NCBI GenBank assembly: GCA_963819655.1
Contig: CAWFXA010000002.1
Location: forward strand, 1,504,001 to 1,568,000
Origin: an uncultured Chloroflexia bacterium
GTDB lineage: Bacteria; Chloroflexota; Limnocylindria; Limnocylindrales; CSP1-4
Reading direction: 5' to 3'
DNA length: 64,000 bases
The notes under the pieces are model-generated. The model saw nothing but the letters and a program-made list of their open reading frames with translations. It was not told the origin of the DNA and made no database searches. A program made the translations under genes and the position numbers. Below, one piece after another: positions 4,667-59,579 of the stretch. The first letter of the stretch is position 1, and every line of letters begins with the position of its first letter.

Positions 4667-5002
4667 ATGAGAATCGTGACGGCGATGGACCTGCGAAAGC
4701 GGCTCGGCGAGATCCTGGATGCGGCCTCCGCTGGCGAGCGCATCCTCATCGAGCGTGACCGCAAGCCGCTGGCTTACCTGGTTTCGGTCGAGGATGCCGA
4801 GCGCCTCGAGCCCGACAGGGGTGAGGTGACGCGCCGCCGACTGGAGGCGCTCGACCGACTCGTCGCGTTCGGCAAGGAGATGCGCGCGAAGTACCCGGAG
4901 CCGGACGACGGGCTGACCTATACGGAATGGCGGCGCCGGGACCTTGAACGACGAACGGATCAGATCATTCGCGCGTCGAAGAGCGGCAGATCCGGTACGT
5001 GA
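4667..5002 (+). CDS. Phd/YefM-family antitoxin
   Basis: VTAMDLRKRLGEILDAASAGERILIERDRKPLAYLV, the Phd N-terminal signature; GTGA overlap with the PIN gene. Confidence 0.88.
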   Translation: MRIVTAMDLRKRLGEILDAASAGERILIERDRKPLAYLVSVEDAERLEPDRGEVTRRRLEALDRLVAFGKEMRAKYPEPDDGLTYTEWRRRDLERRTDQIIRASKSGRSGT

Positions 5003-5532
5003 CGACGATGCCACCGCTCGTCGTCGATACCTCGGCGGCTATCGCGATCATCCGGGAGGAGCCGGCGGGCGCCGCTGCCGCGCGGATCACCAGGACCGCG
5101 GAGACCGCCGGCACGCGCGTGGTCGTGCCATCGCACTTCTGGCTCGAACTGATGAACCCGCTGCTGACGCGCTACCGATTCGGAGGCGTGGACGTGATCC
5201 AGGCGATCCACGAACTCGACCGACTTGGTTTGGAGACGATTGAGATCGACCGATCCTTGGTGTTCTCGACGCTGGACCTGGCCGAGCGTCATGGCCTGAC
5301 GGCGTACGACGCCATGTACCTTGCCCTCGCGATCTCCCTCGACGGTCGCCTGCTCACCTTCGATGAGCAGCTGTACTTGGCATCCGGCGCACGAGCCATC
5401 GCGATCGACGATGGACACCGCAGCGGCGAAACCACTGCAACGTACGAGCACGAGGTGACCTGGCCGAACTACAAGGAAGCATCGGCGTATCTCGCGCGGT
5501 TACGAGCGGATGCCCTCGAAGGCCGCGGCTGA
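4999..5532 (+). CDS. vapC: VapC-family PIN-domain toxin
   Basis: LVVDTSA, W.ELMN, HGLTAYDAMYLALA, LLTFDEQL acidic PIN tetrad. Confidence 0.9.
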   Translation: MTTMPPLVVDTSAAIAIIREEPAGAAAARITRTAETAGTRVVVPSHFWLELMNPLLTRYRFGGVDVIQAIHELDRLGLETIEIDRSLVFSTLDLAERHGLTAYDAMYLALAISLDGRLLTFDEQLYLASGARAIAIDDGHRSGETTATYEHEVTWPNYKEASAYLARLRADALEGRG

Positions 5533-7505: not shown

Positions 7506-9571
<2,066 letters not shown>

Positions 9572-15723: not shown

Positions 15724-16301
15724 TTCGTCAGGCGGAACTCGATGCCCTGGAAGTTACGCGCGGTGCCGATCCCGATCTTCCTGTCCGAACCGATGAACGG
15801 CTCCTGCCAGACCTCGAAGCTGTACTCGAAGAAGACGTTGTAGGCGCGGATCGTCCAGCACGCGCCATTCGGCACAGTGGTGCTGGAGCGATATGCCACG
15901 GATTCGGATCGCTCCACGTTGAAGCCGACGCCGGCGGTCACGACCTCGGCGCTCACGCTGACGTTCGCCGAGAAGCTGTTCTTGACGGTCCGCGTGATAT
16001 CGATGCCGATCGTGGTCGGGCCGTTGCCCTGGACCATCGTCACGAACGGCTTGATCGTTCGCACGTACCGCCGGTTCTTGACATAGATGCAGTCCCAGAC
16101 GCACAGGGCCTGGGTCCCGGCCGTGCTGCTACCCGTCGCGGGCACGATGAGGCCCTTCGCGATCAGCTCGGCGCGGCTCACGAAGGTGACGACTTCCTTC
16201 CGGGAGCTTTCAGGGCTTCCGGCCGCGGCCGAGGCCGGAGCGACGAGCCCGACGGCGACCACGATGGCCAGGACGAGCGGGAACTTGAGCGAGCGACGCA
16301 T
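15714..16301 (-). CDS. secreted beta-rich protein, possibly aerolysin/ETX-MTX2-like
   Basis: Signal peptide ending ASA-AA; Ser/Thr-rich alternating stretch ITRTVKNSFSANVSVSAEVVTAGVGFNVERSESVAYRSSTTVP; four Cys; GAGG RBS. Confidence 0.7.
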   Translation of the reverse strand: MRRSLKFPLVLAIVVAVGLVAPASAAAGSPESSRKEVVTFVSRAELIAKGLIVPATGSSTAGTQALCVWDCIYVKNRRYVRTIKPFVTMVQGNGPTTIGIDITRTVKNSFSANVSVSAEVVTAGVGFNVERSESVAYRSSTTVPNGACWTIRAYNVFFEYSFEVWQEPFIGSDRKIGIGTARNFQGIEFRLTKWC

Positions 16302-16306
16302 GCCAC

Positions 16307-16340
16307 CTACCTCATGTGGCGGGCTACCTCACGTGGCGGG
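16307..16340. repeat. 17-bp tandem duplication CTACCTCAYGTGGCGGG x2
   Basis: 16307-16323 and 16324-16340 differ at one base; contains the minus-strand RBS of the secreted-protein gene. Confidence 0.85.
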
Positions 16341-16452
16341 CGACGGCTGTCCGGCGTCGGGAGCACCCTAGCGGGCCGCGCTCACCTCTCGCGTATCTGC
16401 CGCTCTACTGGCGCGTAGCTGTGCCGAACGTGGCCGACTTCGTCTCGCCGTA

Positions 16453-17163
16453 TCAGCCGGGTGCAGCGTTAGTCGCTCGCGGACCGACCAGGCGGTAGCC
16501 CAAGCCGTACTCCGTCGCGATCATCGACTCGCCGGGCGCCACCGCGTCCAGCTTGAGGCGCAGGTTGCGAACCGTCATGCGCAGCAGGTGCACGTCCCGG
16601 TCGTACCCGGCGCCCCAGACTCCGCCGAGCATCTGGCGATGGGTCACCAGCTGACCGCCGTGCTCGACGAGGAAGGCGAGCAGGCGGAATTCGGTCGGCG
16701 TGAGGCCGATCTCCACGCCTCGCAGGTGCGCACGATGCTCGTCGAGGTCGACCGCGAGCTCGCCGTGTCGGAGCCGTCGCGGTCGCTCCGGCGAGCTGGT
16801 CCCCGCCCGTCGCAACGCGGCCTCCACGCGGGCGAGGAGCTCCGGGAAGGACACCGGCTTCGTGATGTAGTCGTCCGCCCCGAGCTTCAGGCCACGGATC
16901 TTCTCCGCCTCCGAGCCGCGGGCGGTGACCATAAGGATCGGCACGCGGCTGAACTCGCGAAGGCGCTCGAGCAATTGCCAGCCGTCCAGGCCGGGCAGCG
17001 CGACGTCGAGGACGACGAGGTCGGGGCGTTCATCGTGGAAGCGGCGCAGGGCGTCGGGTCCGGTACGTGCCGTGACGGTTCGGTAGCCGGCCTGCCCGAC
17101 CCACAGTTCGACGAGCGCTGCGAACTCGGGCTCGTCCTCGACGATCAGCACGGTCTCAGCCAT
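16453..17163 (-). CDS. OmpR/PhoB-family response regulator
   Basis: VLIVEDE, LVVLDVALPGLDG, GADDYITKP, winged helix LTPTEFRLL...TEYGLGYRL. Confidence 0.95.
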   Translation of the reverse strand: MAETVLIVEDEPEFAALVELWVGQAGYRTVTARTGPDALRRFHDERPDLVVLDVALPGLDGWQLLERLREFSRVPILMVTARGSEAEKIRGLKLGADDYITKPVSFPELLARVEAALRRAGTSSPERPRRLRHGELAVDLDEHRAHLRGVEIGLTPTEFRLLAFLVEHGGQLVTHRQMLGGVWGAGYDRDVHLLRMTVRNLRLKLDAVAPGESMIATEYGLGYRLVGPRATNAAPG

Positions 17164-18757
17164 CGGCGTCCCCTGATCGCGCAAGTGGGAGCGTGATCCG
17201 GACCCTCGTTCCGGATCGGCCGTCGGCTCGATCGCCGACAGTCAGCTCCCCGCCATGCGCCTCGACCAGGCGCCGGCAGATGAAGAGCCCCAGGCCGGTC
17301 CCCGGGATTCGCGATTCGCGCACGTTCCAGGCGCGATGGAACGGCTCGGTAACGAGCACGCGGTCCGCCTCGGGGATGCCAATGCCTTCGTCGTCGACGG
17401 TGATAACAAGCCATGGCCTGGCGACCATCGCCCCAACGACCACAGGACTGCCGTCGGGCGCGTATTTGAGGGCGTTGCCGACCAGGTTTGCGAGGATCTG
17501 GCCCACCCGCGCGATGTCGACCTCGATCGTGGGCAGGTCATCGGCGGCGTCGACGACGAGACGCTCCTCCTGGCGCGTCATCGTGAGGTCTCCGCGCAGA
17601 CGGGCGACCAGCGCATCGAAAGTCGTGGCCCGGCGCTCGAGGATGAGCGGATCGGCTTGCAGGTGGGTCACGTCGAGGACCTGGTCGACGAGGGCGGCCA
17701 GCCGGGTTGTCGCGTCGTCGATCCGCTCGACGTAGGCGCGCTGTTGCTCGGGCTCGAGCGGTAGGTGGAGTAGCGTCTCCGCGTAGCCGCGGATGAGGGC
17801 GAGCGGCGTCCGCAGCTCATGGCTGACGGTCGCCACGAACCCTTCCCGGAGCTCCTCGAGGGCCTGCACGGCGCTCATGTCGCGAAGGATCGCGGTGGCC
17901 CGCGTGTCGCCCCCGTCGCTCGCGCCGGAGACCGTGACGGCATAGCTGCCCGCCACCCGGACGGGCGAGCCGGCCTGACCACGGACGGCGGATTCACGGT
18001 AGGCGATGGGGTCGCCACCGCGGCGCACCTCGGCAAGCGGGCAGTCGGCAAGCGTGTGCCCACCGGCGATCTCGCAGCCGAGGACGTCCCCGCAGCTCCG
18101 CCCGATGGCCGCCTCGGTTGTGGTGCCGAGCAGCCGCTCGCCGGCCGGGTTGAGTCGCACGACGCAGCCCTCCGCGTCGACCTGCAGGATGAGATCGGTG
18201 GCCCCTTCGACGATGGCGCCGAGCTCGTGGCGTTCGCGTTCGAGCGCCTGTCGCAACCGGGCGCCCTCGAACGCCACCACCAATTCGTGCCGGGCGAGGA
18301 GGGCGATCCGGAGGCCGTCCTCGTCGAGCTGCCGCCCAGCCGTTGGCCAGACAGCGAATGCCGCGCGCAGTGCCCCATCGCCGAGCGTGACGCCTCGCGC
18401 GCCCGGCCACGTGGCAGTCCAGGCCTGCAGCGCGTCGACGTCCGGGAAATCCGTCGGGACCGGGTTGCCGTTCGGAGCCCCCGTCACGGACACCAGGGTG
18501 ACGGAGCGCTCATCGGGGCCGCCGATCCACAACGCTCCGCCTGCGGCGTCCGCGAGCCGGATGAGCTCGAGCAGGACCGAACCGGAAAGCTCCCCGAGCG
18601 TCCCGCCGGTCGCGATCAGCTGGCTCAGCTGGTATTGCGCGAAGAGGGCGTCCGCCTCCCGCTGGGCGTCATCGAAGGCGCGTCGTCGGTCGCGCTCGAG
18701 TGCATCGATGCGGGCCAGGAGTCCGGCCGCGCCCGGCCGGGCCGTCGGGTCACCCAT
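17156..18757 (-). CDS. soluble GAF-like/PAS sensor histidine kinase
   Basis: PAS (LNPAGERLLG, CGDVLGC...CPL), H-box VSHELRTPL, NLVGNALKY, DEGIGI, GTGLGL; no transmembrane segment; overlaps both neighbours. Confidence 0.92.
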   Translation of the reverse strand: MGDPTARPGAAGLLARIDALERDRRRAFDDAQREADALFAQYQLSQLIATGGTLGELSGSVLLELIRLADAAGGALWIGGPDERSVTLVSVTGAPNGNPVPTDFPDVDALQAWTATWPGARGVTLGDGALRAAFAVWPTAGRQLDEDGLRIALLARHELVVAFEGARLRQALERERHELGAIVEGATDLILQVDAEGCVVRLNPAGERLLGTTTEAAIGRSCGDVLGCEIAGGHTLADCPLAEVRRGGDPIAYRESAVRGQAGSPVRVAGSYAVTVSGASDGGDTRATAILRDMSAVQALEELREGFVATVSHELRTPLALIRGYAETLLHLPLEPEQQRAYVERIDDATTRLAALVDQVLDVTHLQADPLILERRATTFDALVARLRGDLTMTRQEERLVVDAADDLPTIEVDIARVGQILANLVGNALKYAPDGSPVVVGAMVARPWLVITVDDEGIGIPEADRVLVTEPFHRAWNVRESRIPGTGLGLFICRRLVEAHGGELTVGDRADGRSGTRVRITLPLARSGDADG

Positions 18758-19406
18758 CGGCGATCGCCCGCAGGAGAAGCGCACATGAGACGGCGCCGGG
18801 GTCGAGATGACCGATCGACCGATCGCCGAGGCGGAGCGCCAGACCGCGCCGGGCGACGAGTGACCGCGTGGATCTCATCCCCCTCGCTGCCGACCACACG
18901 GCGGCGGCCGTGGCGTGACCCGGGGATTCGCCGCGTGACGTCGCATCGACAAACGTGTCCGCTGCCGGCCGCAGCGCGTCGAGGATCGTCTTGTCGCCCA
19001 CCGTGCAGCGTCCACGGCGCGCCAGGCCCTCGGCGGCCGCCACGAGCATCGGCCCGAGCGCGGCCGGGTCGAGCGAAGGTGCATCGCCGGCGGTGACGCC
19101 CGCCTCGAGGAACGCGGTGCCATACAGCGGCCCGGACGCTCCGCCGACGGCCGCCACCAGTCGATGGCCGACGGCCCGGAGCAGCTCGCCGGGCGGCGTC
19201 TCTAGCGGCATGTCGTCGAGCATCGCCTCGACGGCCCGGAACCCGATGACGAGGTTGTCGCCGTGGTCGCCATCGCCCAGCACCGTGTCGAGCCGCGTCA
19301 GGTAGTCGGCGTGGCGTTCGACGACGACCCGGCATCGTCGGAGGGCCGCCCGGACAGCAGCCGCATCGATCACGTCGCGGGGCGTGGCGGATGGCGATGC
19401 GGACAC
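18750..19406 (-). CDS. DhaL (DAK2-domain) paralogue, probably regulatory
   Basis: LDTVLGDGDHG, GGASGPLYG, GDKTILDAL, RGLALRLGDRSIGHLDPGA; GTG 19406 follows TATCGT. Confidence 0.85.
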   Translation of the reverse strand: MSASPSATPRDVIDAAAVRAALRRCRVVVERHADYLTRLDTVLGDGDHGDNLVIGFRAVEAMLDDMPLETPPGELLRAVGHRLVAAVGGASGPLYGTAFLEAGVTAGDAPSLDPAALGPMLVAAAEGLARRGRCTVGDKTILDALRPAADTFVDATSRGESPGHATAAAVWSAARGMRSTRSLVARRGLALRLGDRSIGHLDPGAVSCALLLRAIADG

Positions 19407-19501
19407 GGTCGGCCGACGATAGTCGGTCCGCTGGGCTCGGGCAACGCGACCACCGGGCCACACCAGCCTGCCCGCGCTCGCGTGGCGCCGTTCTGCGGAC
19501 C

Positions 19502-19531
19502 TCTTGATGCCATCTTGCTTTCTTCTTGATG
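19502..19531. promoter_or_regulatory. three TCTTG direct repeats at 11-bp period, putative OmpR/PhoB-type boxes
   Basis: TCTTGATG at 19502, TCTTGCTT at 19513, TCTTGATG at 19524, in an AT-rich patch between the divergent regulatory and dha operons. Confidence 0.7.
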
Positions 19532-19602
19532 ACCTCCGGCAGAGCATCGCCTCCAACCAGCAACCCGGGTGCAACCCACCCAGCAGATGAAAGGAGGCGC
19601 GC

Positions 19603-20007
19603 TTGGTGGGCCTGATCCTCGTCTCCCACAGCGGCATGCTCGTCGACGGTCTGCGCGACATGGTCGCCCAGGTGGCCGGCGCCGACGTCCCCGTGGCGAC
19701 CGCCGGTGGGACCGAGGATGGACGCCTCGGCACCAGCGCTCCACGTATCGCCGAGGCCGTCCGCTTCGTCCTCGACCGCGCCGACGATGCAGTGGTGCTG
19801 CTCGACCTGGGCAGCGCCGCCTTGAGCCTCGAGCTTGCGCTCGAGGACCTGACCAGCACCGATCGACAACGGATCCGCGTCACTGAGGCGCCGCTCGTCG
19901 AGGGCGCGGTCCTCGCCGCGGTCCAGGCCAGCGTCGGCGCCACGATCGACGAAGTCGTTGCGGCGGCCGAGTCGGCCGCGACGATGCCCAAGCTGCCACG
20001 GACGTGA
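19603..20007 (+). CDS. dhaM: dihydroxyacetone kinase phosphotransfer subunit DhaM (EIIA-Man-like)
   Basis: VGLILVSHS, AGGTEDGRLGTS, LLDLGSA, APLVEGA; AAAGGAGG RBS. Confidence 0.93.
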   Translation: MVGLILVSHSGMLVDGLRDMVAQVAGADVPVATAGGTEDGRLGTSAPRIAEAVRFVLDRADDAVVLLDLGSAALSLELALEDLTSTDRQRIRVTEAPLVEGAVLAAVQASVGATIDEVVAAAESAATMPKLPRT

Positions 20008-20279
20008 CGATGTCGGAGATCCGCCTCGTCGTCATCGACCCCGCCGGGCTCCACGCCCGGCCTGCCGCGCGGTTCGTCCAGGCGGCGACGCGTTTCACGA
20101 GTCGGATCGTCCTCCGTCAGGACGGTCGGGAAGCCGACGCGAAGAGCCTCATCGCCCTACTCGGGCTGACGATCCGACCGTCGTCCGAGATCACCCTCAC
20201 GGCCGATGGCCCTGATGCCGACGCCGCCCTGGCCGCCCTGCAGGCGGAGCTCGCCCCGTACGTCAGCCAGGCCGGCTGA
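20004..20279 (+). CDS. ptsH: HPr phosphocarrier protein
   Basis: GLHARPAA (His15) and ADAKSLIALL (Ser46). Confidence 0.93.
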   Translation: MTMSEIRLVVIDPAGLHARPAARFVQAATRFTSRIVLRQDGREADAKSLIALLGLTIRPSSEITLTADGPDADAALAALQAELAPYVSQAG

Positions 20280-20308
20280 CCCACCAGACTCCGAGGAGGT
20301 AGCACCGG

Positions 20309-21085
20309 ATGTCCCCGACCCTGCCCCAGAAGTTGACCGCCGAAGCCATCGGCACTGCGATCCTCGTCTTCATCGGCGCGGGCTCCGTGCCGCTCACCGT
20401 ATTCCTGACCGCTGGCGCCGGCGGCACCGGCATCGATGGCACCGCTGGTCTGTCGACCATCTCGTTCGCGTTCGCGTTCGCCATCTTCGCCGCGATCTAC
20501 TCGGTCGGCCACATCAGCGGATGCCACATCAACCCGGCCGTCACGATCGCGCTGCTGGCGACACGCAAGATCGACGCCGCGACCGCGGCCTCGTACATCG
20601 CTGCTCAGCTCGTCGGCGCGTTCATCGGTGCAGGGCTGACGTTCATCATCCTGACCGGCAACGACCCGCAGACCCTTGGGCTCGGCGCGGTCGGCGTCAA
20701 TGTGAATGCGGGCCTGCTCGTGGGATTCGCGGCCGAGGTCATCGGCACGGCGATCCTCGTGTTCACGGTCTTCGGGGCCGCAGTCAGCGGCAAGGCGCCG
20801 TCCGGTTTCGCCGGCCTCGCCATCGGGTTCATCGTGTACGGGATCATCATCCTCGTCGGCCCGATCACCGGTGCGGCGCTCAACCCGGCCCGCCAGATCG
20901 GACCCGACATCCTCGAGATGCTCATCGGCGGCGCAGCCCCGGCGTGGGATGCGCTGGCCCTCGTGTATATCGCCGGGCCGATCGTCGGCGGTCTTGTCGG
21001 CGGCTTCCTGTACGAGTTCATCGGACGCGAAGTGACCGCACCCGCTCGCTCGACGACCGTCGCTGAGGCCCGTGCCGAGGGGTAG
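20309..21085 (+). CDS. MIP-family channel (aquaporin/glycerol facilitator)
   Basis: [10 protein letters not shown] and [11 protein letters not shown] boxes; six transmembrane segments. Confidence 0.95.
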
Positions 21086-21144
21086 CCCCGACGCCCTGCC
21101 GATCGTTCGCGACTCCACAAACTGACCCGAGGAGGATCCATCCG

Positions 21145-22167
21145 ATGGCGACCAACACACCCACCCGGGTGAAGAAGCTCTTCAACGCGATCGAGGACAT
21201 CGTCCCTGAGAGCCTCCGTGGCCTCGAGGCGGCGCATCCCGACCTGGTCAAGGTGGACCTGAGCCAGAACCTCGTCCTCCGCGCCGGAGGGCCGAAGCAA
21301 GGCAAGGTCGCCCTGATCTCGGGCGGTGGGTCCGGTCACGAACCGATGCATGGCGGCTTCGTCGGCCTGGGCATGCTGGACGCGGCCGCAGCCGGCAATG
21401 TCTTCACGTCGCCCGTGCCGGACCAGATGGAGGCTGCGACCCGCGCCGTCGACGGCGGCGCTGGCGTGCTGCACATCGTCAAGAACTACACCGGCGACGT
21501 CCTGAACTTCCAGCTCGCGGCCGAGCTCGTCGGCGGCGACATCGAGGTGGCGACCGTCGTCACCAACGATGACGTCGCCGTCCAGGACTCGCTGTACACG
21601 GCCGGACGCCGTGGCGTCGGGGTCACGGTCCTCCTCGAGAAGATCGCCGGCGCCCATGCCGAGGCCGGCGGGTCGCTCGCCGACGTGGCGGCGACGGCCA
21701 CCAAGGTCAACGACCAGGGCAAGTCGATGGGTCTCGCGCTGACATCGTGCGTCGTCCCCGCCGCGGGCACGCCGACGTTCGACCTGCCCGACGACGAGGT
21801 CGAGGTCGGTATCGGCATCCACGGCGAGCCGGGCCGCCGCCGCGAGAAGCTGGCGCCCGTCGATGACATGGCCGAGTGGCTGGTCGCGCCGATCGTCTCC
21901 GATCTTGGACTCAGCCGCGGCGATACGGTGCTTGCATTCGTCAACGGCATGGGCGGCACGCCGCTCATCGAGCTCTACGTGGCGTTCAACAGCGTCGCGA
22001 AGATCCTCGGCGGGCAGGGCATCTCGATCGGGCGCTCGCTCGTCGGGAACTACATCACCAGCCTCGAGATGGCCGGGTTCTCGGTGACCCTGCTGCGGCT
22101 CGACGATGAGCTCACCCGATGGTGGGATGCCCCGGTGCACACACCGGCCCTACGCTGGAAGGTCTGA
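21145..22167 (+). CDS. dhaK: dihydroxyacetone kinase subunit DhaK
   Basis: [41 protein letters not shown]. Confidence 0.96.
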
Positions 22168-22185
22168 CAGACCCGCTCGACGCGA

Positions 22186-22224
22186 GCGGCCGCCGCACCG
22201 TCCTCCCTCAGGTGCGGCGGCCGC
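22186..22224 (+). terminator. 14-bp perfect GC stem-loop after dhaK (terminator or mRNA stabiliser)
   Basis: GCGGCCGCCGCACC-N11-GGTGCGGCGGCCGC; no U-tract; possible internal promoter TTTCAC-17-TAGACT at 22242-22270 follows. Confidence 0.55.
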
Positions 22225-22303
22225 CGCCAAACCCGCATACCTTTCACGCGTTCGCGCCGCCTTCTAGACTCGGGCGCGACCGCCGCCGTCAAGGGATCCA
22301 TCC

Positions 22304-22954
22304 ATGATCGACGTCATCGATGCCTGGCTCCGCCTGGCCGCCACTCGCCTGCACGATCAGGCAGCGATCCTGACCAAGCTCGATCAGGCCATCGGCGATG
22401 GGGACCACGGCACCAACATGGACCGCGGGTTTAGCGCGATCGTCACGATGCTCGACAGCGAACCGCCTGCGGGCGACGGCCAACTGGCCGTCGGCGGCGC
22501 ACGTCTGCGGACTGCCGGGCGGACGCTGATCAGCACCGTCGGCGGCGCCGCCGGACCGCTCTATGGCACCGCGTTCATGCGCGCCGGCGGGGCCATCGCC
22601 GCCTTGCCCGAAAAAACGCCCGGCAGCGTGGCCCTGGTCGCCGGTCTCGATGCGGCGATCGGCGGGGTCCAGTCGCTCGGCAAGGGCGTGGCCGGCGAGA
22701 AGACCATGCTCGATGCATTGCTGCCCGCCCTCGCTGCCGGACGCGAGGCGTCCGACGCGGGCGACGACCCAGGCGCCCTGGTCCATTCCATGGCGGATGC
22801 CGCCGAAGCCGGGGCGGCCGCCACGATCCCGATGCTCGCCACCAAGGGTCGCGCGTCCTACCTGGGCGAGCGTTCGATCGGGCATCAGGACCCGGGAGCC
22901 ACCTCTGCCGCGCTCCTGTTGCGGGCGTTGGCCGATGTCGCCGGGGGCGAGTGA
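22304..22954 (+). CDS. dhaL: dihydroxyacetone kinase subunit DhaL
   Basis: LDQAIGDGDHGTNM, GGAAGPLYG, EKTMLDAL, KGRASYLGERSIGHQDPGA. Confidence 0.96.
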   Translation: MIDVIDAWLRLAATRLHDQAAILTKLDQAIGDGDHGTNMDRGFSAIVTMLDSEPPAGDGQLAVGGARLRTAGRTLISTVGGAAGPLYGTAFMRAGGAIAALPEKTPGSVALVAGLDAAIGGVQSLGKGVAGEKTMLDALLPALAAGREASDAGDDPGALVHSMADAAEAGAAATIPMLATKGRASYLGERSIGHQDPGATSAALLLRALADVAGGE

Positions 22955-22958
22955 TCCG

Positions 22959-24758
22959 ATGGAGCGAACGGTGGCGCGGACCGTGGCCCGAGCCCGAGCC
23001 CGAGCCGCGACCGGGGCCTGGACGCCTGGCCCGGTGCTCGTCGGTCGGCCCGGTGCGCCGGGTGTCGGGGTCGGGCGTGCCCTGGTCGTCGAGCCGCCTG
23101 GTGGCGGGGGCTCAGGCGCGGCCGGGGTGGGCGCGAGCCCGATCGGCGCGGACGCCGTGGGCGTGCCCGCCGTGGGCGTGCCCGCCGATCCCGCAGCGGA
23201 GGCCGACCGACTCCGGGCGGCGCTCGAGAGGGCCGCCACAGAGCTGACGGACCTCGCCGATGAGACGACGACGCGTGCCGGTGAGGACGTCGGGGCGATC
23301 TTCGTGGCGCAAGCCCTGTTCGCGCGTGATCCGGGAATCGTGGATCCGACGCTCGACGAGATCTCGGCCGGCATCCCGGCCGCGGACGCGATCATCAGCG
23401 TGACGGCCCGGCATGCCGACAGCCTGGCCGGTGTCGACGACGACTACTTTCGGGAGCGCGCCGCCGACGTGCGCGACATCGGCCGACGGGTCGCCGCGCT
23501 CCTTCGCGGTGAACGACGTCCGGACCTGTGGCACGCGGACGGTCATCCGGCAGTGCTGATCGCCGCCGACCTCGATCCATCGGTGGTCGCGTCCCTGCGT
23601 CGAGAGCTTGTCGCAGGCATCGCGACGGCGGGTGGGACATCGACCGGCCATGCGGCGATCGTCGCGCGTGCACTCGGCATCCCGCTCGTCCTCGGGCTCG
23701 GCGAAGGGATCTCGGCCGTGTCGAATGGCATCGAAGTGGCGGTCGAAGGATCGACCGGCCGACTTCTCGTTGATCCCGGGCCGGAAACCCTGGCAGCGCT
23801 CCGATCGGCTGCGACCTCAGCGCCGGTGGCCGGCGCAGACCGCGCGTCCACGCACGGCGTGGCGGTCATGGCCAACGTCTCGTCGCCCCTCGAGGCGGCG
23901 GCCGCCGGCCAGGCCGAGGCAGACGGCATCGGACTCGTCCGGACAGAGCTCCTGTTCCTGGGTCGACACACGCCCCCGACCGTCGATGAACAGCGAGCGA
24001 CCTACGCGCACATCCGAGCCAAGTTCGGCGATCGGCCGATCGTGTTCCGAACGCTTGACGTCGGTGGCGACAAGCCGGCGTCGTGGCAGCACGGGCCTGC
24101 CGAGACGAATCCCGCCCTGGGAGTGCGAGGCGTCCGACTCGGTCAGCGTCAGCCCGACCTGCTCGACGATCAGCTCCGCGCGCTCGTCGAGGCGGCGAGC
24201 GAGGACGAGCTGCGGGTCATGGTCCCGATGGTCGCGACTCGCGAGGAGCTCGACGATGTGAGATCGCGGCTCGACGCGGTCGTCACAACCGTTTCCGCCT
24301 CGACCGGCGTCCGTCCGCGGGCGATACGGCTCGGGGTCATGATCGAGGTGCCTGCCGCGGCGGTCATGGCTGACGTGTTCGCGGAAGCGGCGGACTTTCT
24401 GTCGATCGGGACCAACGACCTTGTCCAGTACGTGCTCGCGGCCGACCGGACAAATCCCGACCTCGGTGATCTCGCTTCACCCCTGCAACCGGCGATCTTG
24501 CGGCTGATCGACAGCGTGGTCCAGGCGGCGCGCCTCCACGGACGACACGTCGCCGTCTGCGGGGAGGCGGCTGGGGATCCCGCGGTCGTGCCGCTGCTCC
24601 TTGGGCTGGGCGTGGAGGAGCTGAGCGTTACCCCTGCGGCGATCGCATCTGTTCGCAGCACGCTTGCCGGGCTAGACCCATCCGTTTGCGAGGCCCTCGC
24701 CAAGCGTGCCCTGAGCGCCCGGTCGCTGGCCGAGGTGCGGGCGCTGCTCGAGGGCTAG
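22959..24758 (+). CDS. ptsI: PEP-protein phosphotransferase (PTS enzyme I)
   Basis: YFRERAADVRD, GHAAIVARALGIP, GIGLVRTELLF, RTLDVGGDK, NPALGVRGVR, SIGTNDL.QY, VCGE. Confidence 0.93.
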   Translation: MERTVARTVARARARAATGAWTPGPVLVGRPGAPGVGVGRALVVEPPGGGGSGAAGVGASPIGADAVGVPAVGVPADPAAEADRLRAALERAATELTDLADETTTRAGEDVGAIFVAQALFARDPGIVDPTLDEISAGIPAADAIISVTARHADSLAGVDDDYFRERAADVRDIGRRVAALLRGERRPDLWHADGHPAVLIAADLDPSVVASLRRELVAGIATAGGTSTGHAAIVARALGIPLVLGLGEGISAVSNGIEVAVEGSTGRLLVDPGPETLAALRSAATSAPVAGADRASTHGVAVMANVSSPLEAAAAGQAEADGIGLVRTELLFLGRHTPPTVDEQRATYAHIRAKFGDRPIVFRTLDVGGDKPASWQHGPAETNPALGVRGVRLGQRQPDLLDDQLRALVEAASEDELRVMVPMVATREELDDVRSRLDAVVTTVSASTGVRPRAIRLGVMIEVPAAAVMADVFAEAADFLSIGTNDLVQYVLAADRTNPDLGDLASPLQPAILRLIDSVVQAARLHGRHVAVCGEAAGDPAVVPLLLGLGVEELSVTPAAIASVRSTLAGLDPSVCEALAKRALSARSLAEVRALLEG

Positions 24759-25531
24759 CGTCCGACCGTTACGCCCCGTGGCGGTCGATCGAGGATCGTG
24801 GCGAGGTCGCCGCGGACATCGGCCCAAAGGATTCCGTCGCCGGGCCAGGGCCGATCAGCCTCGGTGATCGCCCGGAAGACGGCGCGGGCGGGTGCCGGAT
24901 AGGCGGCAGCGAGGGTCGCACCAAACCTCGTTGCGATCTCGCGGTTCGAACGGGTCGAGCGGACGACCAGCAGGCGATCGATGCTCGGCGTATCGCCCAT
25001 CCGATCCCAGAACGGCGCTGACGGGAGCGCGAGCGCCTTTTCGTTCGCCCATCGGATGAGCTGTTCGAGCCGTCGCAGCTCCGACTGGATCTCGGTGCAG
25101 ATCGCGACCGTCGGGGGTCGATCGAGCAGCACCAGATCGATGAATCCGCGGGCCGGTCGAACGACGGGAACTTCGAGCATTCGATCCCAGCGTGGGTTCA
25201 GGATGCGTAGCAATGCTTCCCCGATCCGCGCCTGGATCGGATCTCGAAGGCGCGGGCCGGCGCCCGGAAACAGGCGAATGCTGGCGTCAGCTCCGAGCGC
25301 GGTCGCGATTGCCGTCAGTGCAGTGATGCTTGGCTCTCGCAGGCCGCGCTCGATCAGTGAAAGGAAGCCGTGGTCGATACCCGCTGCGACCGACAACTCG
25401 CGCTGTGTGGCGCCCGAGTCTTCGCGCATCTGTCGGATGTCCGCACCGATCCGGATGCGGAGGTCCCTTGCCCGCCGGCCCACAAGCGTCTGCGATGTGC
25501 GGCGCGGTCGAACGATCCGTGGCGTCGACAT
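24755..25531 (-). CDS. XRE-family HTH protein fused to a PD-(D/E)XK-like nuclease domain
   Basis: IRQMREDSGATQRELSVAAGIDHGFLSLIERGLREPS (XRE HTH); LEVP...GFIDLVLLD...ICTEIQSEL (E...D...ExQ core, Q at the usual K position). Confidence 0.75.
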   Translation of the reverse strand: MSTPRIVRPRRTSQTLVGRRARDLRIRIGADIRQMREDSGATQRELSVAAGIDHGFLSLIERGLREPSITALTAIATALGADASIRLFPGAGPRLRDPIQARIGEALLRILNPRWDRMLEVPVVRPARGFIDLVLLDRPPTVAICTEIQSELRRLEQLIRWANEKALALPSAPFWDRMGDTPSIDRLLVVRSTRSNREIATRFGATLAAAYPAPARAVFRAITEADRPWPGDGILWADVRGDLATILDRPPRGVTVGR

Positions 25532-25620
25532 GAGCCTGATTTGATCAGGTGGCGCTCAACGGCGGCTTATCTGACGCGACGAATAGCGCCACGCGGGCTT
25601 GCGGCTGCTGACATTCGGCT

Positions 25621-34750: not shown

Positions 34751-35374
34751 CTACCCGAGGATGTCGCAGGTATCGAAGCCGAGCCCGTCGTGCGGTCCCG
34801 CGACCTCGAATGACACCCCTTCGATGAAGATGCCGCCAGGCGTGCCATCGCCCAGGGTGTCGAAGATGATCGTCTCTCGGATCACGCCCCGGTCGCGCAC
34901 CACGAGGTTGCCGTCCGCGTCGCGGACGATCAGCGGCTGACCTGCGAGCCGCGAGCTGAACGCGAAGCGGTTGTCGCCAAGCGCGACCGCGCGGGTTTCC
35001 TGGAACAGGCCGTTGCCGCTAATGGTGAGGCTCTCGCCGTCCGGGTTGGTGTGGACCTCACTGAACGAAAAGTTGTCGTGCGCGAAGAAGGCCGTCGCGA
35101 ACCGACCCGTTCCGACCCGGTAATGAACGATCCCGTCGACGTGGCCCTCGACGCTGATCTCGACCGTGCCACATAGATACGTGAAGGAAAAATCCTCCGC
35201 GTAGCGTTCGCGCTCGATCGTGGTTGCGGAAGCCGGTCCGACGGCCGCGAGCAGCGCGATCACGACGACCATGATCGCCATCGCGACCGGGCGTTTGGAG
35301 CGATCGCCGATCGCGGCAGGCCGCGACAACCTCGACAGATCGTTCAACGGACGAGTGGACGACGTAGCGCGCAT
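34751..35374 (-). CDS. secreted hypothetical beta-rich protein
   Basis: GAGGAGG RBS; signal-like IMVVVIALLAAVGPASA; Cys near each end of the mature part. Confidence 0.65.
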   Translation of the reverse strand: MRATSSTRPLNDLSRLSRPAAIGDRSKRPVAMAIMVVVIALLAAVGPASATTIERERYAEDFSFTYLCGTVEISVEGHVDGIVHYRVGTGRFATAFFAHDNFSFSEVHTNPDGESLTISGNGLFQETRAVALGDNRFAFSSRLAGQPLIVRDADGNLVVRDRGVIRETIIFDTLGDGTPGGIFIEGVSFEVAGPHDGLGFDTCDILG

Positions 35375-35510
35375 GGTGTCCCTCCTCGATTGCCCGGCGG
35401 CCCGACGAGGATGGCACACGGGTGTCGCCGGGGCGTTGTGTGAGTTGCGCGGTCCGGAGTCCGGGTATCCTGTCGCGAACATCGACGCCCTGGGAGCCCA
35501 GCCAACGCCC

Positions 35511-36347
35511 GTGAGCGACGGACACGTCATCATCATCGGCGGCGCGGAGGACAAGGTCCGCGACCGCGTCATCCTCAGCCGGTTCGCCACCCTCGCCGGC
35601 GGTCGCGACGCGACCGTCGCAGTGATCTCGACCGCGTCGTCCCTCGGCGAGCTCGCAGGTGAGCGCTACAAGCAGGTGCTCGGCGAGCTCGGCGTCAAGA
35701 AGGTTCGCGCGATCCATGCGGTGACCCGCGCGCAGGCCAACGACGACACGGTCGCCCTGGCGCTGCGGGACGCGACCGGCATCTTCATGACCGGCGGGAA
35801 CCAGTTGCGGCTGTCATCGACGATCGGTGGCACGCGACTGGCGGACGCGGTCCTCGAGCAGTTCCGCAAGGGCGCCGTCGTGGCCGGCACGAGCGCCGGT
35901 GCCTCGGCGATGTCGAGTCACATGATCGCGTTCGGCGCGTCGGGCGCGACGCCGAAGCACCGGATGGCCCAGATCGCAGCCGGCCTCGGCGTGCTGCCGG
36001 GCGTGATCATCGACCAGCATTTCCAGCAGCGGAACCGCCTCGGGCGGCTGCTCAGCCTCATCGCCCAGAACCCGAGCCTGCTCGGTCTCGGCGTCGACGA
36101 GGACACGGCCGGCGTCGTCGGGCCCGATCACATCATGGAGGTCATCGGGCGAGGATCGATCACGGTCGTGGATGGTTCCCGCTCGGAGACCGACGCCTGG
36201 GAGGTCAAGGGTCACCGGCCGCTGATGATCAGCGGTGTCGTGCTCCATTCCCTGCCGGCCGGCTACCGGTTCGACCTCCAACGGCGCGAGCGGATCATCG
36301 CGCCGACACTCCACGCGCTCTCCGGCGGCGAGGCGGCGTCGAGCTAA
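35511..36347 (+). CDS. cphB: cyanophycinase
   Basis: IIIGGAEDK, FMTGGNQLRL, GTSAGA (Ser nucleophile), IDQHFQQRNRLGRL, GVDEDT; start approximate. Confidence 0.95.
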   Translation: MSDGHVIIIGGAEDKVRDRVILSRFATLAGGRDATVAVISTASSLGELAGERYKQVLGELGVKKVRAIHAVTRAQANDDTVALALRDATGIFMTGGNQLRLSSTIGGTRLADAVLEQFRKGAVVAGTSAGASAMSSHMIAFGASGATPKHRMAQIAAGLGVLPGVIIDQHFQQRNRLGRLLSLIAQNPSLLGLGVDEDTAGVVGPDHIMEVIGRGSITVVDGSRSETDAWEVKGHRPLMISGVVLHSLPAGYRFDLQRRERIIAPTLHALSGGEAASS

Positions 36348-36382
36348 GTTCGCCGCGCCGGGCCTGGCAAACGAGGCGTGCT

Positions 36383-36669
36383 TTGCATCCGGTGCACGAA
36401 CCGTCGACTGGACGGCGCCATGCACTCGCTCCGTCGAAGATCCGTGCGTCCAGTGCACCAAGCGTCGGTTGGAGGCCGCGCGTTGGGGCCCAGTCGACCG
36501 TTCGTTCACCGGGCGCAAGAGTGCCTGGGCACCAGCGATCTGCCGCGACTGTGAGGCACGAATTCGAGCCGAAGGAGCCTCTCGCGCCGTCCTGGGCCCG
36601 ATAGCGCGACTCACCAGCACAAGATGGTCGCGAGGGGCGAGGTGGGCGCGGTTTCGGCCCGAAAACGTG
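36383..36669. repeat. REP/BIME-like cluster of direct and inverted repeats
   Basis: CCGGTGCACGAACCGTCGACTGG (36389-411), degenerate direct copy at 36450-472, inverted copy at 36490-512 (2 mismatches in 23); second inverted pair 36557-573 / 36653-669 (14 of 17). Confidence 0.65.
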
Positions 36670-36799
36670 ACTGGGAGTCTCGGAAACGTAGAGTGGATAC
36701 GAGTGGGAGCGTAAGAGTGGGGATTGCGGTCGCCATCCGCCGCGTGCAAACCCACCGCCGTACACTGACGGCCCATCCCGAGAGCGCAGGAGGGCGAGC

Positions 36800-55823: not shown

Positions 55824-55915
55824 GCCTGGACAGCGTACCGGGAACACGCTGGACGCGGCTCGTATGATGCCCCGAACGACCGGCCGTTCCGGGCCGGCGG
55901 GGAGGAGGGTCACCC

Positions 55916-56767
55916 TTGGCGCGCGTCGCGATCTTCACCGACTCGGCGTCCGACCTCGATCCGGCCGAAGCGTCGGCATCGGGCATCCACATCGTGCCGC
56001 TGCTCGTGAATTTCGGGTCGCAGTCGTTCAGGGCCGGCGTGGATCTGACGGGTCCCGCCTTCTGGGAACGGATGACCGCTCCCGACGCGCCGTTCCCGAC
56101 GACGGCGGCCTCGTCACCCGGCGACTTCAAGGATGCGTACGAGGCGGCCTTCACCGACGGCGCCGAGGCGATCGTCTCGGTCCATGTCGCAGGCTCGCTG
56201 TCAGGCACGATCAAGAGCGCTCAGATCGCGCGCGACATGCTGCCTGACCGTGAGATCCATGTCGTCGATTCGCTGAGTGCGTCGATGGCGATCGGCATCT
56301 TGGCCCGGATGGGGCTGGAGCTCGCCGAGGCGGACGTCCCGGCCGAGGAGATCGCGGCGGCGCTCGAGGAACGCGCCCAGGACCTGCGCATCTATTTCGC
56401 CCTGGACACCCTCGAATACCTGAAGAAGGGCGGTCGCATCAGCGGCGCCCAGGCGGCGATCGGGACGCTGCTCTCGGTGAAGCCTGTGATCATGCTCAAG
56501 CACGGCGAGGTCACCACCGTCGATCGGGTTCGGACACGCTCGAAGGCGCGCGAGCGTCTCATCGAGCTGACGGTCGAGCGCCCGGTCGAGCGGCTGTCGA
56601 TCCTGCACACGGTCACGCCGGACATCGAGGCGTTCCGCACGGACGTCCTGAAGCACCTCCCCGACCTGGATCCTGGGGCCGTGTCGGTCGAGCTCGTCGG
56701 CGCGTCGGTCGGGCCGCACGTCGGCCCGGGCTGCGTGGGCGCGGCGATCCTGTATCGCCCGAACTGA
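55916..56767 (+). CDS. DegV-family fatty-acid-binding protein
   Basis: IFTDSASDL, PTT, SLSGT, VVDS, LEYLKKGGRI, LLSVKP, HVGPG. Confidence 0.93.
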   Translation: MARVAIFTDSASDLDPAEASASGIHIVPLLVNFGSQSFRAGVDLTGPAFWERMTAPDAPFPTTAASSPGDFKDAYEAAFTDGAEAIVSVHVAGSLSGTIKSAQIARDMLPDREIHVVDSLSASMAIGILARMGLELAEADVPAEEIAAALEERAQDLRIYFALDTLEYLKKGGRISGAQAAIGTLLSVKPVIMLKHGEVTTVDRVRTRSKARERLIELTVERPVERLSILHTVTPDIEAFRTDVLKHLPDLDPGAVSVELVGASVGPHVGPGCVGAAILYRPN

Positions 56768-59564: not shown

Positions 59565-59579
59565 CACCCGGCTCGGAGC

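Follow-up and report, generated by a model that had tools for sequence, protein, structure and literature searches.

Background

In E. coli, the DhaL protein carries the signal for the dha operon: DhaL-ADP is the coactivator and DhaK the corepressor (4LRX, 4LRY, 4LRZ) of DhaR, a single-chain AAA+/HTH activator whose cytoplasmic receiver joins GAF-like and PAS domains through helical linkers and whose gene is divergent from the dha operon. It is the catalytic DhaL itself that moonlights there. In Lactococcus lactis a duplicated DHA kinase subunit has become a regulatory cofactor encoded beside its regulator: DhaQ, a DhaK paralogue of the DHA-binding K type (TIGR02362, 'DhaKLM operon coactivator DhaQ'), is the coactivator and works with DhaS, a one-component regulator of the TetR family. 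Histidine kinases can also be docked by small cytoplasmic signal proteins, as in the pairs PII (GlnB) with NtrB and EIIA-Ntr with KdpD/PhoR, EIIA-Ntr being a further PTS link to two-component systems; in these pairs the ligand or phosphorylation state of a soluble accessory protein reports metabolism and sets histidine kinase activity through the kinase core. The DhaL fold has also been reused beyond DHA phosphorylation, binding ADP and two Mg in the N-terminal domain of the fatty acid kinase FakA, as described in the accessible part of PMC9136124.

The locus described here resembles the E. coli system in the divergent placement of its regulator genes and in a cytoplasmic sensor for which the DhaR receiver is, by a small margin, the best fold match. 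It differs in that a dedicated Arg-less paralogue, DhaL2, would take the place of a moonlighting catalytic DhaL, and in its output, which is a HisKA/HATPase transmitter with an OmpR-type regulator. With L. lactis it shares the duplicated kinase subunit encoded beside a regulator, although the subunit is the nucleotide-binding L rather than the DHA-binding K, and the regulator is a two-component system. The role proposed for DhaL2 would be that of PII or EIIA-Ntr, but DhaL2 has a Dak2/DhaL fold derived from an enzyme subunit, and its predicted docking site is the N-terminal helix and GAF domain of the kinase. The FakA domain, lacking the DhaL cap, is still a kinase domain in a three-domain enzyme, whereas DhaL2 is stand-alone and full-length DhaL-like. 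We found no published description of a switch made of a pseudo-DhaL, a histidine kinase and a regulator.

Organization of the locus

Within the window (the whole 64-kb stretch of DNA analysed, from a soil Chloroflexota bacterium), dhaL2 is followed on the minus strand by genes for a soluble histidine kinase and an OmpR-type regulator, with an 8-nt overlap at each junction by coordinate arithmetic, and dhaM-ptsH-MIP-dhaK-dhaL-ptsI run divergently on the plus strand (Pfam, NCBIfam; Table 1). The earlier note had described an overlapping trio divergent from a dha operon, and gene coordinates, Pfam and NCBIfam bear this out; the end coordinate it gave, 19531, falls instead in the intergenic region, the most likely dhaL2 start being the GTG of Table 1. 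Many orthologues share this start site (for example P0125, 'MSASPS'), and the kinase has the same length as its orthologue P0004 (93% identity).

On the opposite strand, dhaM begins at TTG 19603 or GTG 19606, 3' of AAAGGAGG. Pfam places the PEP-utilizer domains from roughly residue 161 of the ptsI frame onwards, and the 5' end of the frame is not taken as the gene start. A gene for an XRE-type HTH protein (24755-25531, Pfam) is found at the distal end of the operon. The DhaK of the window was considered as a DhaQ and rejected (TIGR02362, 249.6 against a cut-off of 413.25), its TIGR02363 score being above cut-off, the enzyme type; Pfam detects neither a second Dak1 gene nor a TetR gene in the region, and hence no DhaS/DhaQ components.

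Table 1. Coordinates of genes and sequence features in the window
Feature	Coordinates	Strand	Basis
dhaL2, DhaL paralogue	18750..19406	-	GTG start at 19406, 218 aa; Pfam Dak2 6.2e-46
Histidine kinase, soluble	17156..18757	-	ATG start at 18757, 533 aa; Pfam, AF2 fold
OmpR/PhoB-type response regulator	16453..17163	-	ATG start at 17163, 236 aa; Pfam
Leu codon CTG of dhaL2, site of E. coli DhaL Arg178	18840..18842	-	alignment to 2btd, 3pnl; residue counted by hand
Candidate dhaL2 promoter	19416..19444	-	-35 TTGCCC 19444-19439, 17 nt, -10 TATCGT 19421-19416; read by eye
Four 11-bp direct repeats, candidate regulator operator	19491..19534	.	box positions, shuffles, relatives
dhaM, EIIA-Man-type phosphoryl donor subunit	19603..20007	+	Pfam EIIA-man; TIGR02364 128.2 bits, cut-off 98.25
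ptsH (HPr)	20004..20279	+	Pfam PTS-HPr 6e-26
MIP-family channel, glycerol/DHA facilitator-like	20309..21085	+	Pfam MIP 5.4e-48
dhaK	21145..22167	+	Pfam Dak1 1.3e-124; TIGR02363 452.8 bits, cut-off 406.25
Catalytic dhaL, reads KGRASYLGERSIGHQDPGA	22304..22954	+	TIGR02365 204.8 bits; alignment
ptsI (Enzyme I) reading frame	22563..24758	+	Pfam PEP-utilisers_N, PEP-utilizers, PEP-utilizers_C

A DhaL family member without the conserved arginine

DhaL2 matches the Dak2 profile over positions 2-173 of 174 (156.9 bits, cut-off 27), exceeds the NCBIfam 'equivalog' cut-off for DhaL (TIGR02365, 180.9 bits against 138.3), aligns to E. coli DhaL with only one gap, of a single residue, and shares 42% identity with the DhaL of the operon. 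Its gene is not part of the enzyme operon; it heads the kinase-regulator operon, and a separate dhaL lies 3' of dhaK. As had been read from the letters, the motifs GDGDHG (19277-19260), GGASGPLYG (19145-19119) and DPGA (18803-18792) are kept on the minus strand, and alignment places RGLA (18848-18837) where the operon's catalytic copy has KGRA.

When 134 sequences of the DhaL2 group are compared with 169 of the canonical group (E. coli numbering), both keep D30, D35, D37, H38, G77-P82, K128, T129, D132 and D191-A194 at a level of at least 95%, and the two are divided by I33L, R44I, M130I, K176R, R178L, S180L and Y181R. The last of these is an invariant arginine gained by DhaL2 three residues after the lost Arg178, which it might replace. 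The accessible part of PMC13663913 reports the conserved KGRA arginine as required for kinase activity and mutation of Arg543 as abolishing triokinase; in the corresponding part of PMC11506722, Arg543 is essential and contacts ATP. We infer that this arginine corresponds to E. coli Arg178 because DhaL and the Arg543 protein share an Arg-to-Asp spacing of 13 residues (hand count). Since the equivalents of both Arg178 and Arg44 are lost, DhaL2 probably transfers phosphate to DHA barely or not at all, the presumed loss of catalysis being drawn from one residue and the literature on relatives.

Conservation of the substitution and of the gene trio

The arginine is absent from all 120 of the closest database homologues of DhaL2, which carry Leu in 118 cases, Val in one, and Leu followed by Gly in one. 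A DhaL2 profile retrieved 80 loci, all the relatives being from uncultured Chloroflexota with several assemblies frameshifted; eight of the loci combine DhaL2, a homologue of the kinase N-terminal region and the regulator (L001-L006, L015 and L079), except that the L002 and L004 sequences stop before the regulator gene. In seven of the eight, dhaM is divergent upstream; in L079 the trio is present and dha genes are absent within the 11 kb examined. The remaining 72 loci are ordinary dhaK-dhaL loci without a homologue of the kinase. All eight kinase-linked copies read G-L-A, whereas the matched copy is G-R-A in every non-kinase locus where the motif was read (67/67; the pattern gave nothing in five). 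The eight Leu rows group together as one clade (SH-aLRT 99) when 88 DhaL sequences are placed on a tree; the clade requires one change and stands apart from the co-resident catalytic copies. Judged from these sequences, loss of the arginine is a family hallmark of kinase-linked DhaL copies. Two surveys proposed in the earlier note, a search for DAK2-HK-RR triplets beside dha operons and a scoring of the Arg-to-Leu change in orthologues, thus both come out as it anticipated.

The histidine kinase and its regulator

The kinase is of the class I type (Pfam HisKA 63.2 bits, HATPase_c 89.1 bits; H-box SHELRTP). From the N-terminus it comprises a helix (residues 10-50), a GAF-like domain (54-154), a linker helix (156-186), a PAS domain (189-293), HisKA (304-368) and HATPase_c (414-526), so that its C-terminal half consists of the last two, without the AAA+ central domain and HTH of the DhaR type. 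No membrane segment was found in it, the highest 19-residue Kyte-Doolittle mean (1.48) lying inside the ATPase domain, in agreement with its earlier description as soluble. The regulator has a Response_reg domain (5.6e-29, 101 bits) followed by Trans_reg_C (3e-18, 66.1 bits) in Pfam; among NCBIfam equivalogs PhoB and MtrA score best for it, every one under its cut-off.

An AF2 model of kinase residues 1-300 (mean pLDDT 87.3) has as its top Foldseek matches in the PDB the E. coli DhaR(N) chains 4lry_C and 4lrx_C (E 1.6e-8, 295 columns), at a low TM-score of 0.27 and with other GAF/PAS sensors nearly level. These top matches come from DhaR(N)-DhaK complexes, and DhaR(N)-DhaL appears at rank 21. 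At the sequence level no homology of the sensor to DhaR(N) could be demonstrated (hhalign probability 3.7%). Of the GAF-PAS architecture originally assigned to the kinase, the PAS part stands; Pfam makes no GAF call in this protein, and we assign the GAF domain because of its fold (AF2, Foldseek) and because the L079 orthologue has a Pfam GAF match. The PAS domain holds an invariant set of cysteines and a histidine (C222, C228, H234 and C239) that could, from its conservation, be the true or a second input.

Predicted complex of DhaL2 with the kinase sensor

For DhaL2 with the kinase sensor, a pairing that the earlier note suggested modelling, three runs scored 0.89, 0.89 and 0.88, while the highest-scoring of three controls had 0.02; the mark that the predicted complex passes is attained by 116 of 157 solved complexes and by 2 of 215 mismatched pairs. 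The scores were obtained with our own alignments and riding ligands, outside the calibration of the tool, and the solved DhaR(N)-DhaL structure may have helped them. The runs share at least 93% of contacts, with partner pLDDT of at least 92. On the DhaL2 side the modelled interface consists of R186, R187, G188, L189, L191, R192, R130-R133 and the P-loop, and so includes Leu189, the position of the lost arginine, together with its altered neighbours. Invariant residues make up 15 of 17 positions at this interface compared with 77 of 218 in the whole of DhaL2, and 11 of 18 at the kinase interface compared with 70 of 300 in the modelled kinase region, an enrichment that depends in part on the alignments fed to the complex model. 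Because the leucine and the changed neighbours lie in the modelled kinase-binding surface, the substitution may represent gain of an interface as much as loss of catalysis.

The same surface is the nucleotide/P-loop face, which would also suit a different arrangement, one that we regard as unlikely, in which DhaL2 mainly meets DhaK and/or DhaM through its canonical nucleotide face and the kinase senses free DhaL2. DhaL2 would be held in dead-end complexes with DHA-loaded DhaK, or charged by DhaM~P, and the signal would be one of titration and not of direct sensing of nucleotide state. Such an arrangement is in keeping with E. coli, where PDB titles show DhaR(N) in complex with DhaK as well as with DhaL. 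The ten-residue cap by which canonical DhaL inserts into DhaK and DhaM, in the account given by the accessible part of PMC9136124, is likewise kept in length in DhaL2, as judged from the one single-residue gap in its alignment with E. coli DhaL. However, the surface changes specific to DhaL2 may have abolished docking on DhaK and DhaM, and titration of this kind refines signalling from DhaL2 to the kinase instead of offering an alternative to it.

Intergenic repeats and promoters

OmpR/PhoB regulators usually bind direct repeats at an 11-bp phase. Between the two operons lie exact TCTTG boxes with first bases at 19502, 19513 and 19524, at the 11-bp period reported earlier; what had been taken as three boxes is, by comparison with relatives, part of a four-repeat array that begins with a degenerate TTCTGC at 19491. 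The triple-box pattern occurs once in the 64-kb window, and 100 shuffles gave none, even when one mismatch was tolerated, whereas the two-box pattern alone is not rare (at least two matches in 22 of 100 shuffles). The array is kept in five of seven related intergenic regions (L015, L001, L003, L002 and L005) and absent from L004 and L006.

The consensus promoter scan returned no sites, the candidate dhaL2 promoter (Table 1) being under its threshold. The -10 element of this candidate ends 9 nt before the GTG start and would make the mRNA leaderless; TTGCC and TA(C/G)ACT recur in related loci in an alignment read by eye.

The repeats, here a candidate operator, might instead have a promoter or UP-like function, or might be recognized by a different protein, for instance the XRE-type HTH protein mentioned above; the two-component system would then control other genes. 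The two trio loci without repeats are compatible with this, as is the last repeat, which by eye holds a -35-like TTGATG or TTGACG. We nevertheless think it improbable: the array is of the usual OmpR/PhoB type, unique in 64 kb and placed between both operons in most of the relatives, and no acceptable -10 was read by eye at 16-18 nt from TTGATG.

Discussion

We consider it somewhat probable that DhaL2 is a regulatory pseudo-DhaL, a co-sensor that docks on the GAF-PAS kinase, and that the OmpR-type regulator acts through the repeats to control the dha operon; the trio is probably a switch for the DHA pathway. DhaL2 would be a copy of the nucleotide-binding subunit of PTS-dependent DHA kinase that is given over to regulation and keeps ADP/ATP-Mg binding. 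The cytoplasmic kinase, with a sensor similar to the N-terminal part of E. coli DhaR that binds DhaL and DhaK, would receive DhaL2 at its N-terminal helix and at the first helix of its GAF domain. DhaL2 would dock there by its nucleotide face, made up of the GGASGP P-loop, the RRGR loop and the altered segment RRGLAxR. The balance of kinase and phosphatase activities would depend on the nucleotide state or the availability of DhaL2, which DhaM~P or competing DhaK could determine. In response, the OmpR-type regulator would occupy the TCTTG repeats, with their 11-bp phase, and control dhaM-ptsH-MIP-dhaK-dhaL-ptsI, perhaps along with its own operon. The proposal that a pseudo-DhaL serves as sensor subunit of a histidine kinase, made in the earlier note, is supported by every computational test run, the support being computational in kind.

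That DhaL2 is instead a second active DhaL isozyme, co-transcribed by chance with a kinase that senses something else (redox or metal, for example, through its Cys/His-rich PAS domain), would accord with its TIGR02365 score, with the retention of all nucleotide and Mg residues and the new arginine at position 181, with the invariant PAS residues and with the L079 trio away from dha genes, yet is very improbable given an arginine that is found in all 67 canonical loci read and that the literature portions cited above report to be necessary for kinase activity, the additional lack of R44, strict linkage to the kinase in 8/8 loci, a single old clade of Leu copies, translational coupling of the trio genes, a predicted complex with the altered residues in its interface, and a catalytic DhaL already inside the operon in each genome.

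A further and more tentative reading of DhaL2 as co-sensor, possible but short of likely, is that the block of changes K176R, R178L, S180L and Y181R with S119R (E. coli numbering) is a re-tooled docking surface, not decay, and that DhaL2 is a nucleotide switch charged by DhaM~P, forming a relay from the PTS to the two-component system. DhaL2 would hold ADP as a coenzyme, like DhaL; DhaM~P would charge it to ATP, with reversible discharge and no flux to DHA, and its nucleotide face would be shown directly to the N-terminal helix and GAF domain of the kinase.

Taken as a whole, the DhaL2-kinase trio appears to be a variation on the co-regulator principle of DhaR/DhaL and DhaS/DhaQ. If the relay reading is true, the phosphorylation state of the PTS would be passed directly to a two-component system by way of a pseudoenzyme, in a system that would be widespread in soil Limnocylindria.

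Gene organization and recurrence of the trio

The window has a G+C content of about 70%, and its nearest protein relatives carry the names Candidatus Limnocylindrales or Limnocylindria, an uncultured class of soil Chloroflexota. Gene calls agree with Pfam and NCBIfam on the arrangement that the earlier note had described: dhaL2, encoding a paralogue of the nucleotide-binding dihydroxyacetone (DHA) kinase subunit DhaL, stands with a soluble histidine kinase and an OmpR-type response regulator in a trio that runs divergently from the dha operon, with 196 bp between dhaL2 and the plus-strand genes. The kinase and regulator start codons each lie 8 nt within the upstream neighbour gene, overlaps that suggest translational coupling. 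Two of the three starts in the trio are backed by orthologues, since many DhaL2 relatives share the first residues M/V-S-A-S-P-S and the database kinase P0004 is 93% identical and also 533 aa long.

Features of the locus and other regions observed in the window
Feature	Position	Strand	Description
dhaL2	19406-18750	minus	GTG start, 218 aa
Histidine kinase	18757-17156	minus	ATG start, 533 aa
OmpR-type response regulator	17163-16453	minus	ATG start, 236 aa
dhaM, HPr, MIP channel, dhaK, normal dhaL, Enzyme I		plus	Six genes in this order (Pfam and NCBIfam)
PAS Cys/His set of the kinase	17990-18094		C-x5-C-x5-H-x4-C, residues about 222-239
Candidate dhaL2 promoter	19406-19444		TTGCCC, 17 nt, TATCGT; by-eye reading of alignment
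TCTTG array	19491-19534		11-bp repeats; candidate operator
GCAACCC pair	19560-19577		Two copies at 11-nt spacing
Cyanophycin-like genes	35205-39676		Peptidase_S51 gene (cyanophycinase family) adjoining a cyanophycin-synthetase-like gene (Cyanophycin_syn, ATP-grasp and Mur-ligase domains)
DegV-family gene	55868-56767		Fatty-acid-binding, FakB-like
AAA_26, first frame	59378-60040		Profile positions 3-130
AAA_26, second frame	59916-60689		Profile positions 130-198 and DRTGG domain

A scan of species-representative genomes, using patterns shared with canonical DhaL and followed by tblastn with the window proteins, listed 80 loci. The triplet that the earlier note had picked out, leucine included, was found again in at least eight of them (L001-L006, L015 and L079), all in Chloroflexota MAGs and all in the order DhaL2, homologue of this kinase's N-terminal region, regulator, where L002 and L004 stop short of the regulator gene. 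dhaM lies divergently upstream in seven of the eight; the remaining 72 listed loci are ordinary dhaK-dhaL(-dhaM) without this kinase. All eight kinase-linked copies read G-L-A, and G-R-A is found in the matched copy of all 67 other loci with a readable motif (five gave no pattern match) as well as in co-resident catalytic copies. In a maximum-likelihood phylogeny of 88 DhaL sequences, from which the frameshifted DhaL2 of L015 was excluded, the eight Leu rows group in one clade with a single change (SH-aLRT 99), apart from the clade (SH-aLRT 96) that holds the catalytic copies of these genomes. The DhaL2 family is abundant in metagenomes of this uncultured soil class: clustering at 90% identity leaves at least 120 clusters, so the design is more than an isolated case. 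The evidence for the trio as a conserved genetic unit is good.

Some loci depart from this layout. A more distant trio (L079:1411-4729), whose DhaL2 reads RCGLALQFG, is flanked by an adenylate-cyclase-domain gene upstream and a GNAT gene downstream, with none of the dha genes found across 11 kb, so the trio can occur unlinked from a dha operon. Three DhaL-like genes lie within L006:4867-9669: a Leu-type copy beside the kinase and two KGRA copies, one directly after dhaM (7848-8480) and one after dhaK (4867-5490). Frameshifts within dhaL2, the kinase or dhaK, seen as split tblastn matches, occur in several long-contig MAGs (L005, L015), and such assembly errors give rise to false "Dak2-histidine kinase fusion" proteins in databases. 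Four single proteins with Dak2 and kinase domains (P0327, P0395, P0403 and P0440) were considered as natural fusions and rejected: in all four, DhaL2 homology ends before the C-terminus and is followed by Arg-rich out-of-frame text. We read them as frameshifted assemblies that lend no Rosetta-stone support.

Elsewhere in the window, the AAA_26 domain at 59378-60689 is split over two overlapping reading frames, which suggests a frameshift in one gene, through sequencing error or in a pseudogene. Judged by its domains, the cyanophycin-like pair is a nitrogen-reserve polymer cluster. FakA, the usual partner of FakB-like DegV proteins, also has a DhaL-fold domain; a tie between the DegV-family gene and the dha locus is not evident.

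DhaL2 as a likely pseudoenzyme

DhaL2 retains the motifs GDGDHG, GGASGPLYG and DPGA and, just as had been noted, reads RGLA (18848-18837, Leu codon CTG at 18842-18840) where the operon's own DhaL reads KGRA. This leucine aligns to Arg178 of E. coli DhaL in the crystal-structure sequences 2btd and 3pnl, the residue being counted by hand. The arginine is absent from all 120 closest DhaL2 homologues listed (70-95% identity; 118 Leu, one Val and one Leu then Gly), and the consensus of these homologues is ARRGLA(L/M)RLGxR(S/A)xGHLDPGAVSC. On these alignments the Arg-to-Leu change is a hallmark of the DhaL2 family. Among the best 150 cluster representatives of all proteins, this position is arginine in 102, leucine in 10, lysine in 3 and threonine in 1; the motif could not be read in the other 34.

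When 134 DhaL2-type and 169 canonical sequences are compared in E. coli numbering, the Mg/nucleotide residues are kept in both groups (D30, D35, D37, H38, G77-P82, K128, T129, D132 and D191-A194). Seven positions tell the groups apart, namely I33L, R44I, M130I, K176R, R178L, S180L and Y181R, of which column 178 is circular because the groups were split by that residue. Through R44I and R178L, two conserved arginines of DhaL are swapped for aliphatic residues, and DhaL2 has further arginines of its own at positions 21, 28, 47, 119 and 170.

For the role of the bacterial arginine we draw on two secondary papers. One, which cites Zurbriggen 2008 and Shi 2011, reports a requirement of the conserved arginine for kinase activity and a loss of triokinase when Arg543 is mutated (PMC13663913); in the other, Arg543 is described as essential and contacting ATP (PMC11506722). 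We equate Arg543 with Arg178 because the Arg-to-Asp spacing is identical (13 residues for both Arg543-Asp556 and Arg178-Asp191), and infer that the two would be counterparts. Zurbriggen 2008 and Shi 2011 are the primary works on the bacterial arginine. DhaL2 continues to score above the cut-off of the NCBIfam equivalog for DhaL; it has likely lost catalysis and looks like a pseudoenzyme that can still bind nucleotide. Separately, four stand-alone DhaL-like representatives (P0265, P0376, P0384 and P0269) have the arginine replaced otherwise (G-K-A, G-K-S or G-T-A) and may be further non-catalytic DhaL lineages.

The kinase sensor and its predicted complex with DhaL2

The kinase has no membrane segment, as the earlier note had observed: over stretches of 19 residues the Kyte-Doolittle mean peaks at 1.48, within the ATPase domain. 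Pfam places PAS (181-295), HisKA and HATPase_c domains in the protein and finds none in residues 1-170. Residues 1-300 were modelled with AlphaFold2 on an alignment with 43 orthologues (mean pLDDT 87.3); in the model a long helix (10-50) leads into an alpha/beta domain (54-154), which a linker helix (156-186) joins to the PAS domain. The top two PDB fold matches of this sensor are the N-terminal sensor region of E. coli DhaR, DhaR(N), from its DhaK complexes (4lry_C and 4lrx_C; E 1.6e-8), with 295 aligned columns of the 294-295-residue chain and TM-scores of just 0.27. DhaR(N) from the DhaL complex (4lrz_H) ranks 21, and near-equal scores go to bacteriophytochromes and to 2ykf, another GAF-PAS kinase sensor. 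A longer kinase orthologue in L079 (629 aa) gives a Pfam GAF match of 33.1 bits. A GAF/PAS sensor of DhaR(N)-like architecture is supported. Sequence homology to DhaR(N) was tried and rejected (hhalign profile-to-sequence probability 3.7% against DhaR 1-318), and a PDB profile search matched kinase cores alone; common descent with DhaR is, on sequence comparison, not supported.

The earlier note had supposed that DhaL2 binds the kinase, and a structure model of kinase residues 1-300 with DhaL2, each given as an alignment, plus ADP and two Mg, predicts such a complex. It scores 0.89, 0.89 and 0.88 in three runs, against 0.02 for the highest-scoring of three controls. Of the solved complexes 116 of 157 reach this mark, as do 2 of 215 mismatched pairs; our own alignments and ligands fall outside this calibration, and a pass can be carried over from a solved complex of like kind, here DhaR(N)-DhaL. 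The runs share at least 93% of contacts, with partner pLDDT of at least 92. On the kinase side, the modelled interface is formed by the N-terminal helix together with the first GAF helix (residues 28, 32, 35-36, 39-40, 42-43, 46-47, 50, 56, 60, 63-64, 67-68 and 70). On DhaL2 it comprises the P-loop region (84, 89-90, 93-94, 97 and 104), the RRGR loop (130-133), in which R130 is the DhaL2-specific S119R, and residues 186-189 and 191-192. The latter, R-R-G-L and L-R, are exactly the changed block K176R, R178L, S180L and Y181R. Invariant residues make up 15 of 17 interface positions in DhaL2 vs 77 of 218 overall, and 11 of 18 in the kinase vs 70 of 300, an enrichment not independent of the alignments fed to the model. 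The reading that we favour takes the Arg-to-Leu change as belonging to a newly formed docking surface on the nucleotide face of DhaL2, through which the kinase could read the state of the bound nucleotide.

The PAS domain also carries C222, C228, H234 and C239, invariant in 43 of 43 orthologues. These residues might form a metal or Fe-S site, through which the kinase would have a second (redox or metal) input, or have a structural role. One rival explanation, which we rate as unlikely, is that DhaL2 is an isozyme that is still active and simply shares a transcript with a kinase that senses something else, perhaps through this Cys/His set. Against that explanation stand the loss of two conserved arginines and the predicted complex.

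The repeat array and candidate promoters

The three TCTTG boxes reported at an exact 11-bp period start at 19502, 19513 and 19524. The triple pattern occurs once in the 64-kb window and in none of 100 shuffles even with one mismatch allowed; the two-box pattern by itself is unremarkable. An intergenic alignment of the window with seven related loci extends the array to four 11-bp repeats, which in the dhaL2 direction read TCAAGAAGCCA / GCAAGnnnGCA / TCAAGAGGTCC / G(C/A)TGAAG, the three boxes of the window being the first three on the opposite strand. The distance from the array downstream to the start codon is 75 nt for dhaM and 96 nt for dhaL2 in the window. The array is recognisable in L015, L001, L003, L002 and L005 and absent from L004 and L006, and its DNA appears in translation where database entries for DhaL2 have a wrongly extended N-terminus (e.g. 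'SSRRKQDGIKR' and 'IKKKARR'). OmpR/PhoB regulators bind direct repeats at 11-bp phase, and by this analogy the array is a candidate operator of the OmpR-type regulator. That the repeats serve another factor, or act as promoter elements, is a competing explanation which we hold less likely; a consensus promoter scan of 16300-19700 returned no sites.

A candidate dhaL2 promoter that recurs in relatives, TTGCC(C/G), 17-18 nt, TA(C/G)ACT, was read from the alignment by eye. In both the window and L015, 9 nt lie between its -10 element and the GTG, a spacing at which the mRNA would be leaderless, and dhaL2 may be translated from such a message; L001 and L003 differ, with a leader of about 36 nt containing GGAGGG. 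The GCAACCC pair lies between the array and the dhaM ribosome-binding site, where GCAAC occurs three times in L015 and not at all in L001. The pair might serve as a second operator or have arisen by chance. Rfam gave no matches at E up to 1 across 16000-25600. Anti-SD pairing in the dhaM leader was rejected as an RNA element, being no better than shuffles (z -0.25) and not kept in L015.

Mechanism and significance

Taking genes and models together, we lean towards DhaL2 as a non-catalytic, nucleotide-loaded co-sensor that binds the kinase and controls the dha operon via the regulator and the repeat array. Loaded with nucleotide, DhaL2 would dock on the N-terminal helix and GAF domain of the kinase, and the signal would pass from kinase to OmpR-type regulator to repeat array to dha operon. 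The input to DhaL2 might be charging by DhaM~P or titration by DhaK, a variant that we count as a rival of lower probability. As a mechanism for the trio, co-sensing is plausible.

DHA-kinase subunits are known to double as transcriptional cofactors in two cases, E. coli DhaR/DhaL/DhaK and Lactococcus DhaS/DhaQ. The trio resembles these in the use of a kinase subunit as a transcriptional cofactor but is a member of neither: here the cofactor would be a dedicated L-subunit paralogue without the family's catalytic arginine, and the receiver a two-component system. Literature searches, assessed from titles and abstracts, brought up no description of a DhaL paralogue coupled to a histidine kinase or two-component system. 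If the co-sensor reading is true, the trio would add a third solution to these two, the first to use a dedicated arginine-less L subunit as a cofactor wired to a histidine kinase. It would also expose a systematic annotation error, for where sources name DhaL2-type proteins they call them 'dihydroxyacetone kinase subunit DhaL' or similar. An enzyme-derived pseudoenzyme would then join the few known accessory proteins of the cytoplasm by which histidine kinases are controlled, and the trio would provide a testable link from the PTS to two-component signalling.
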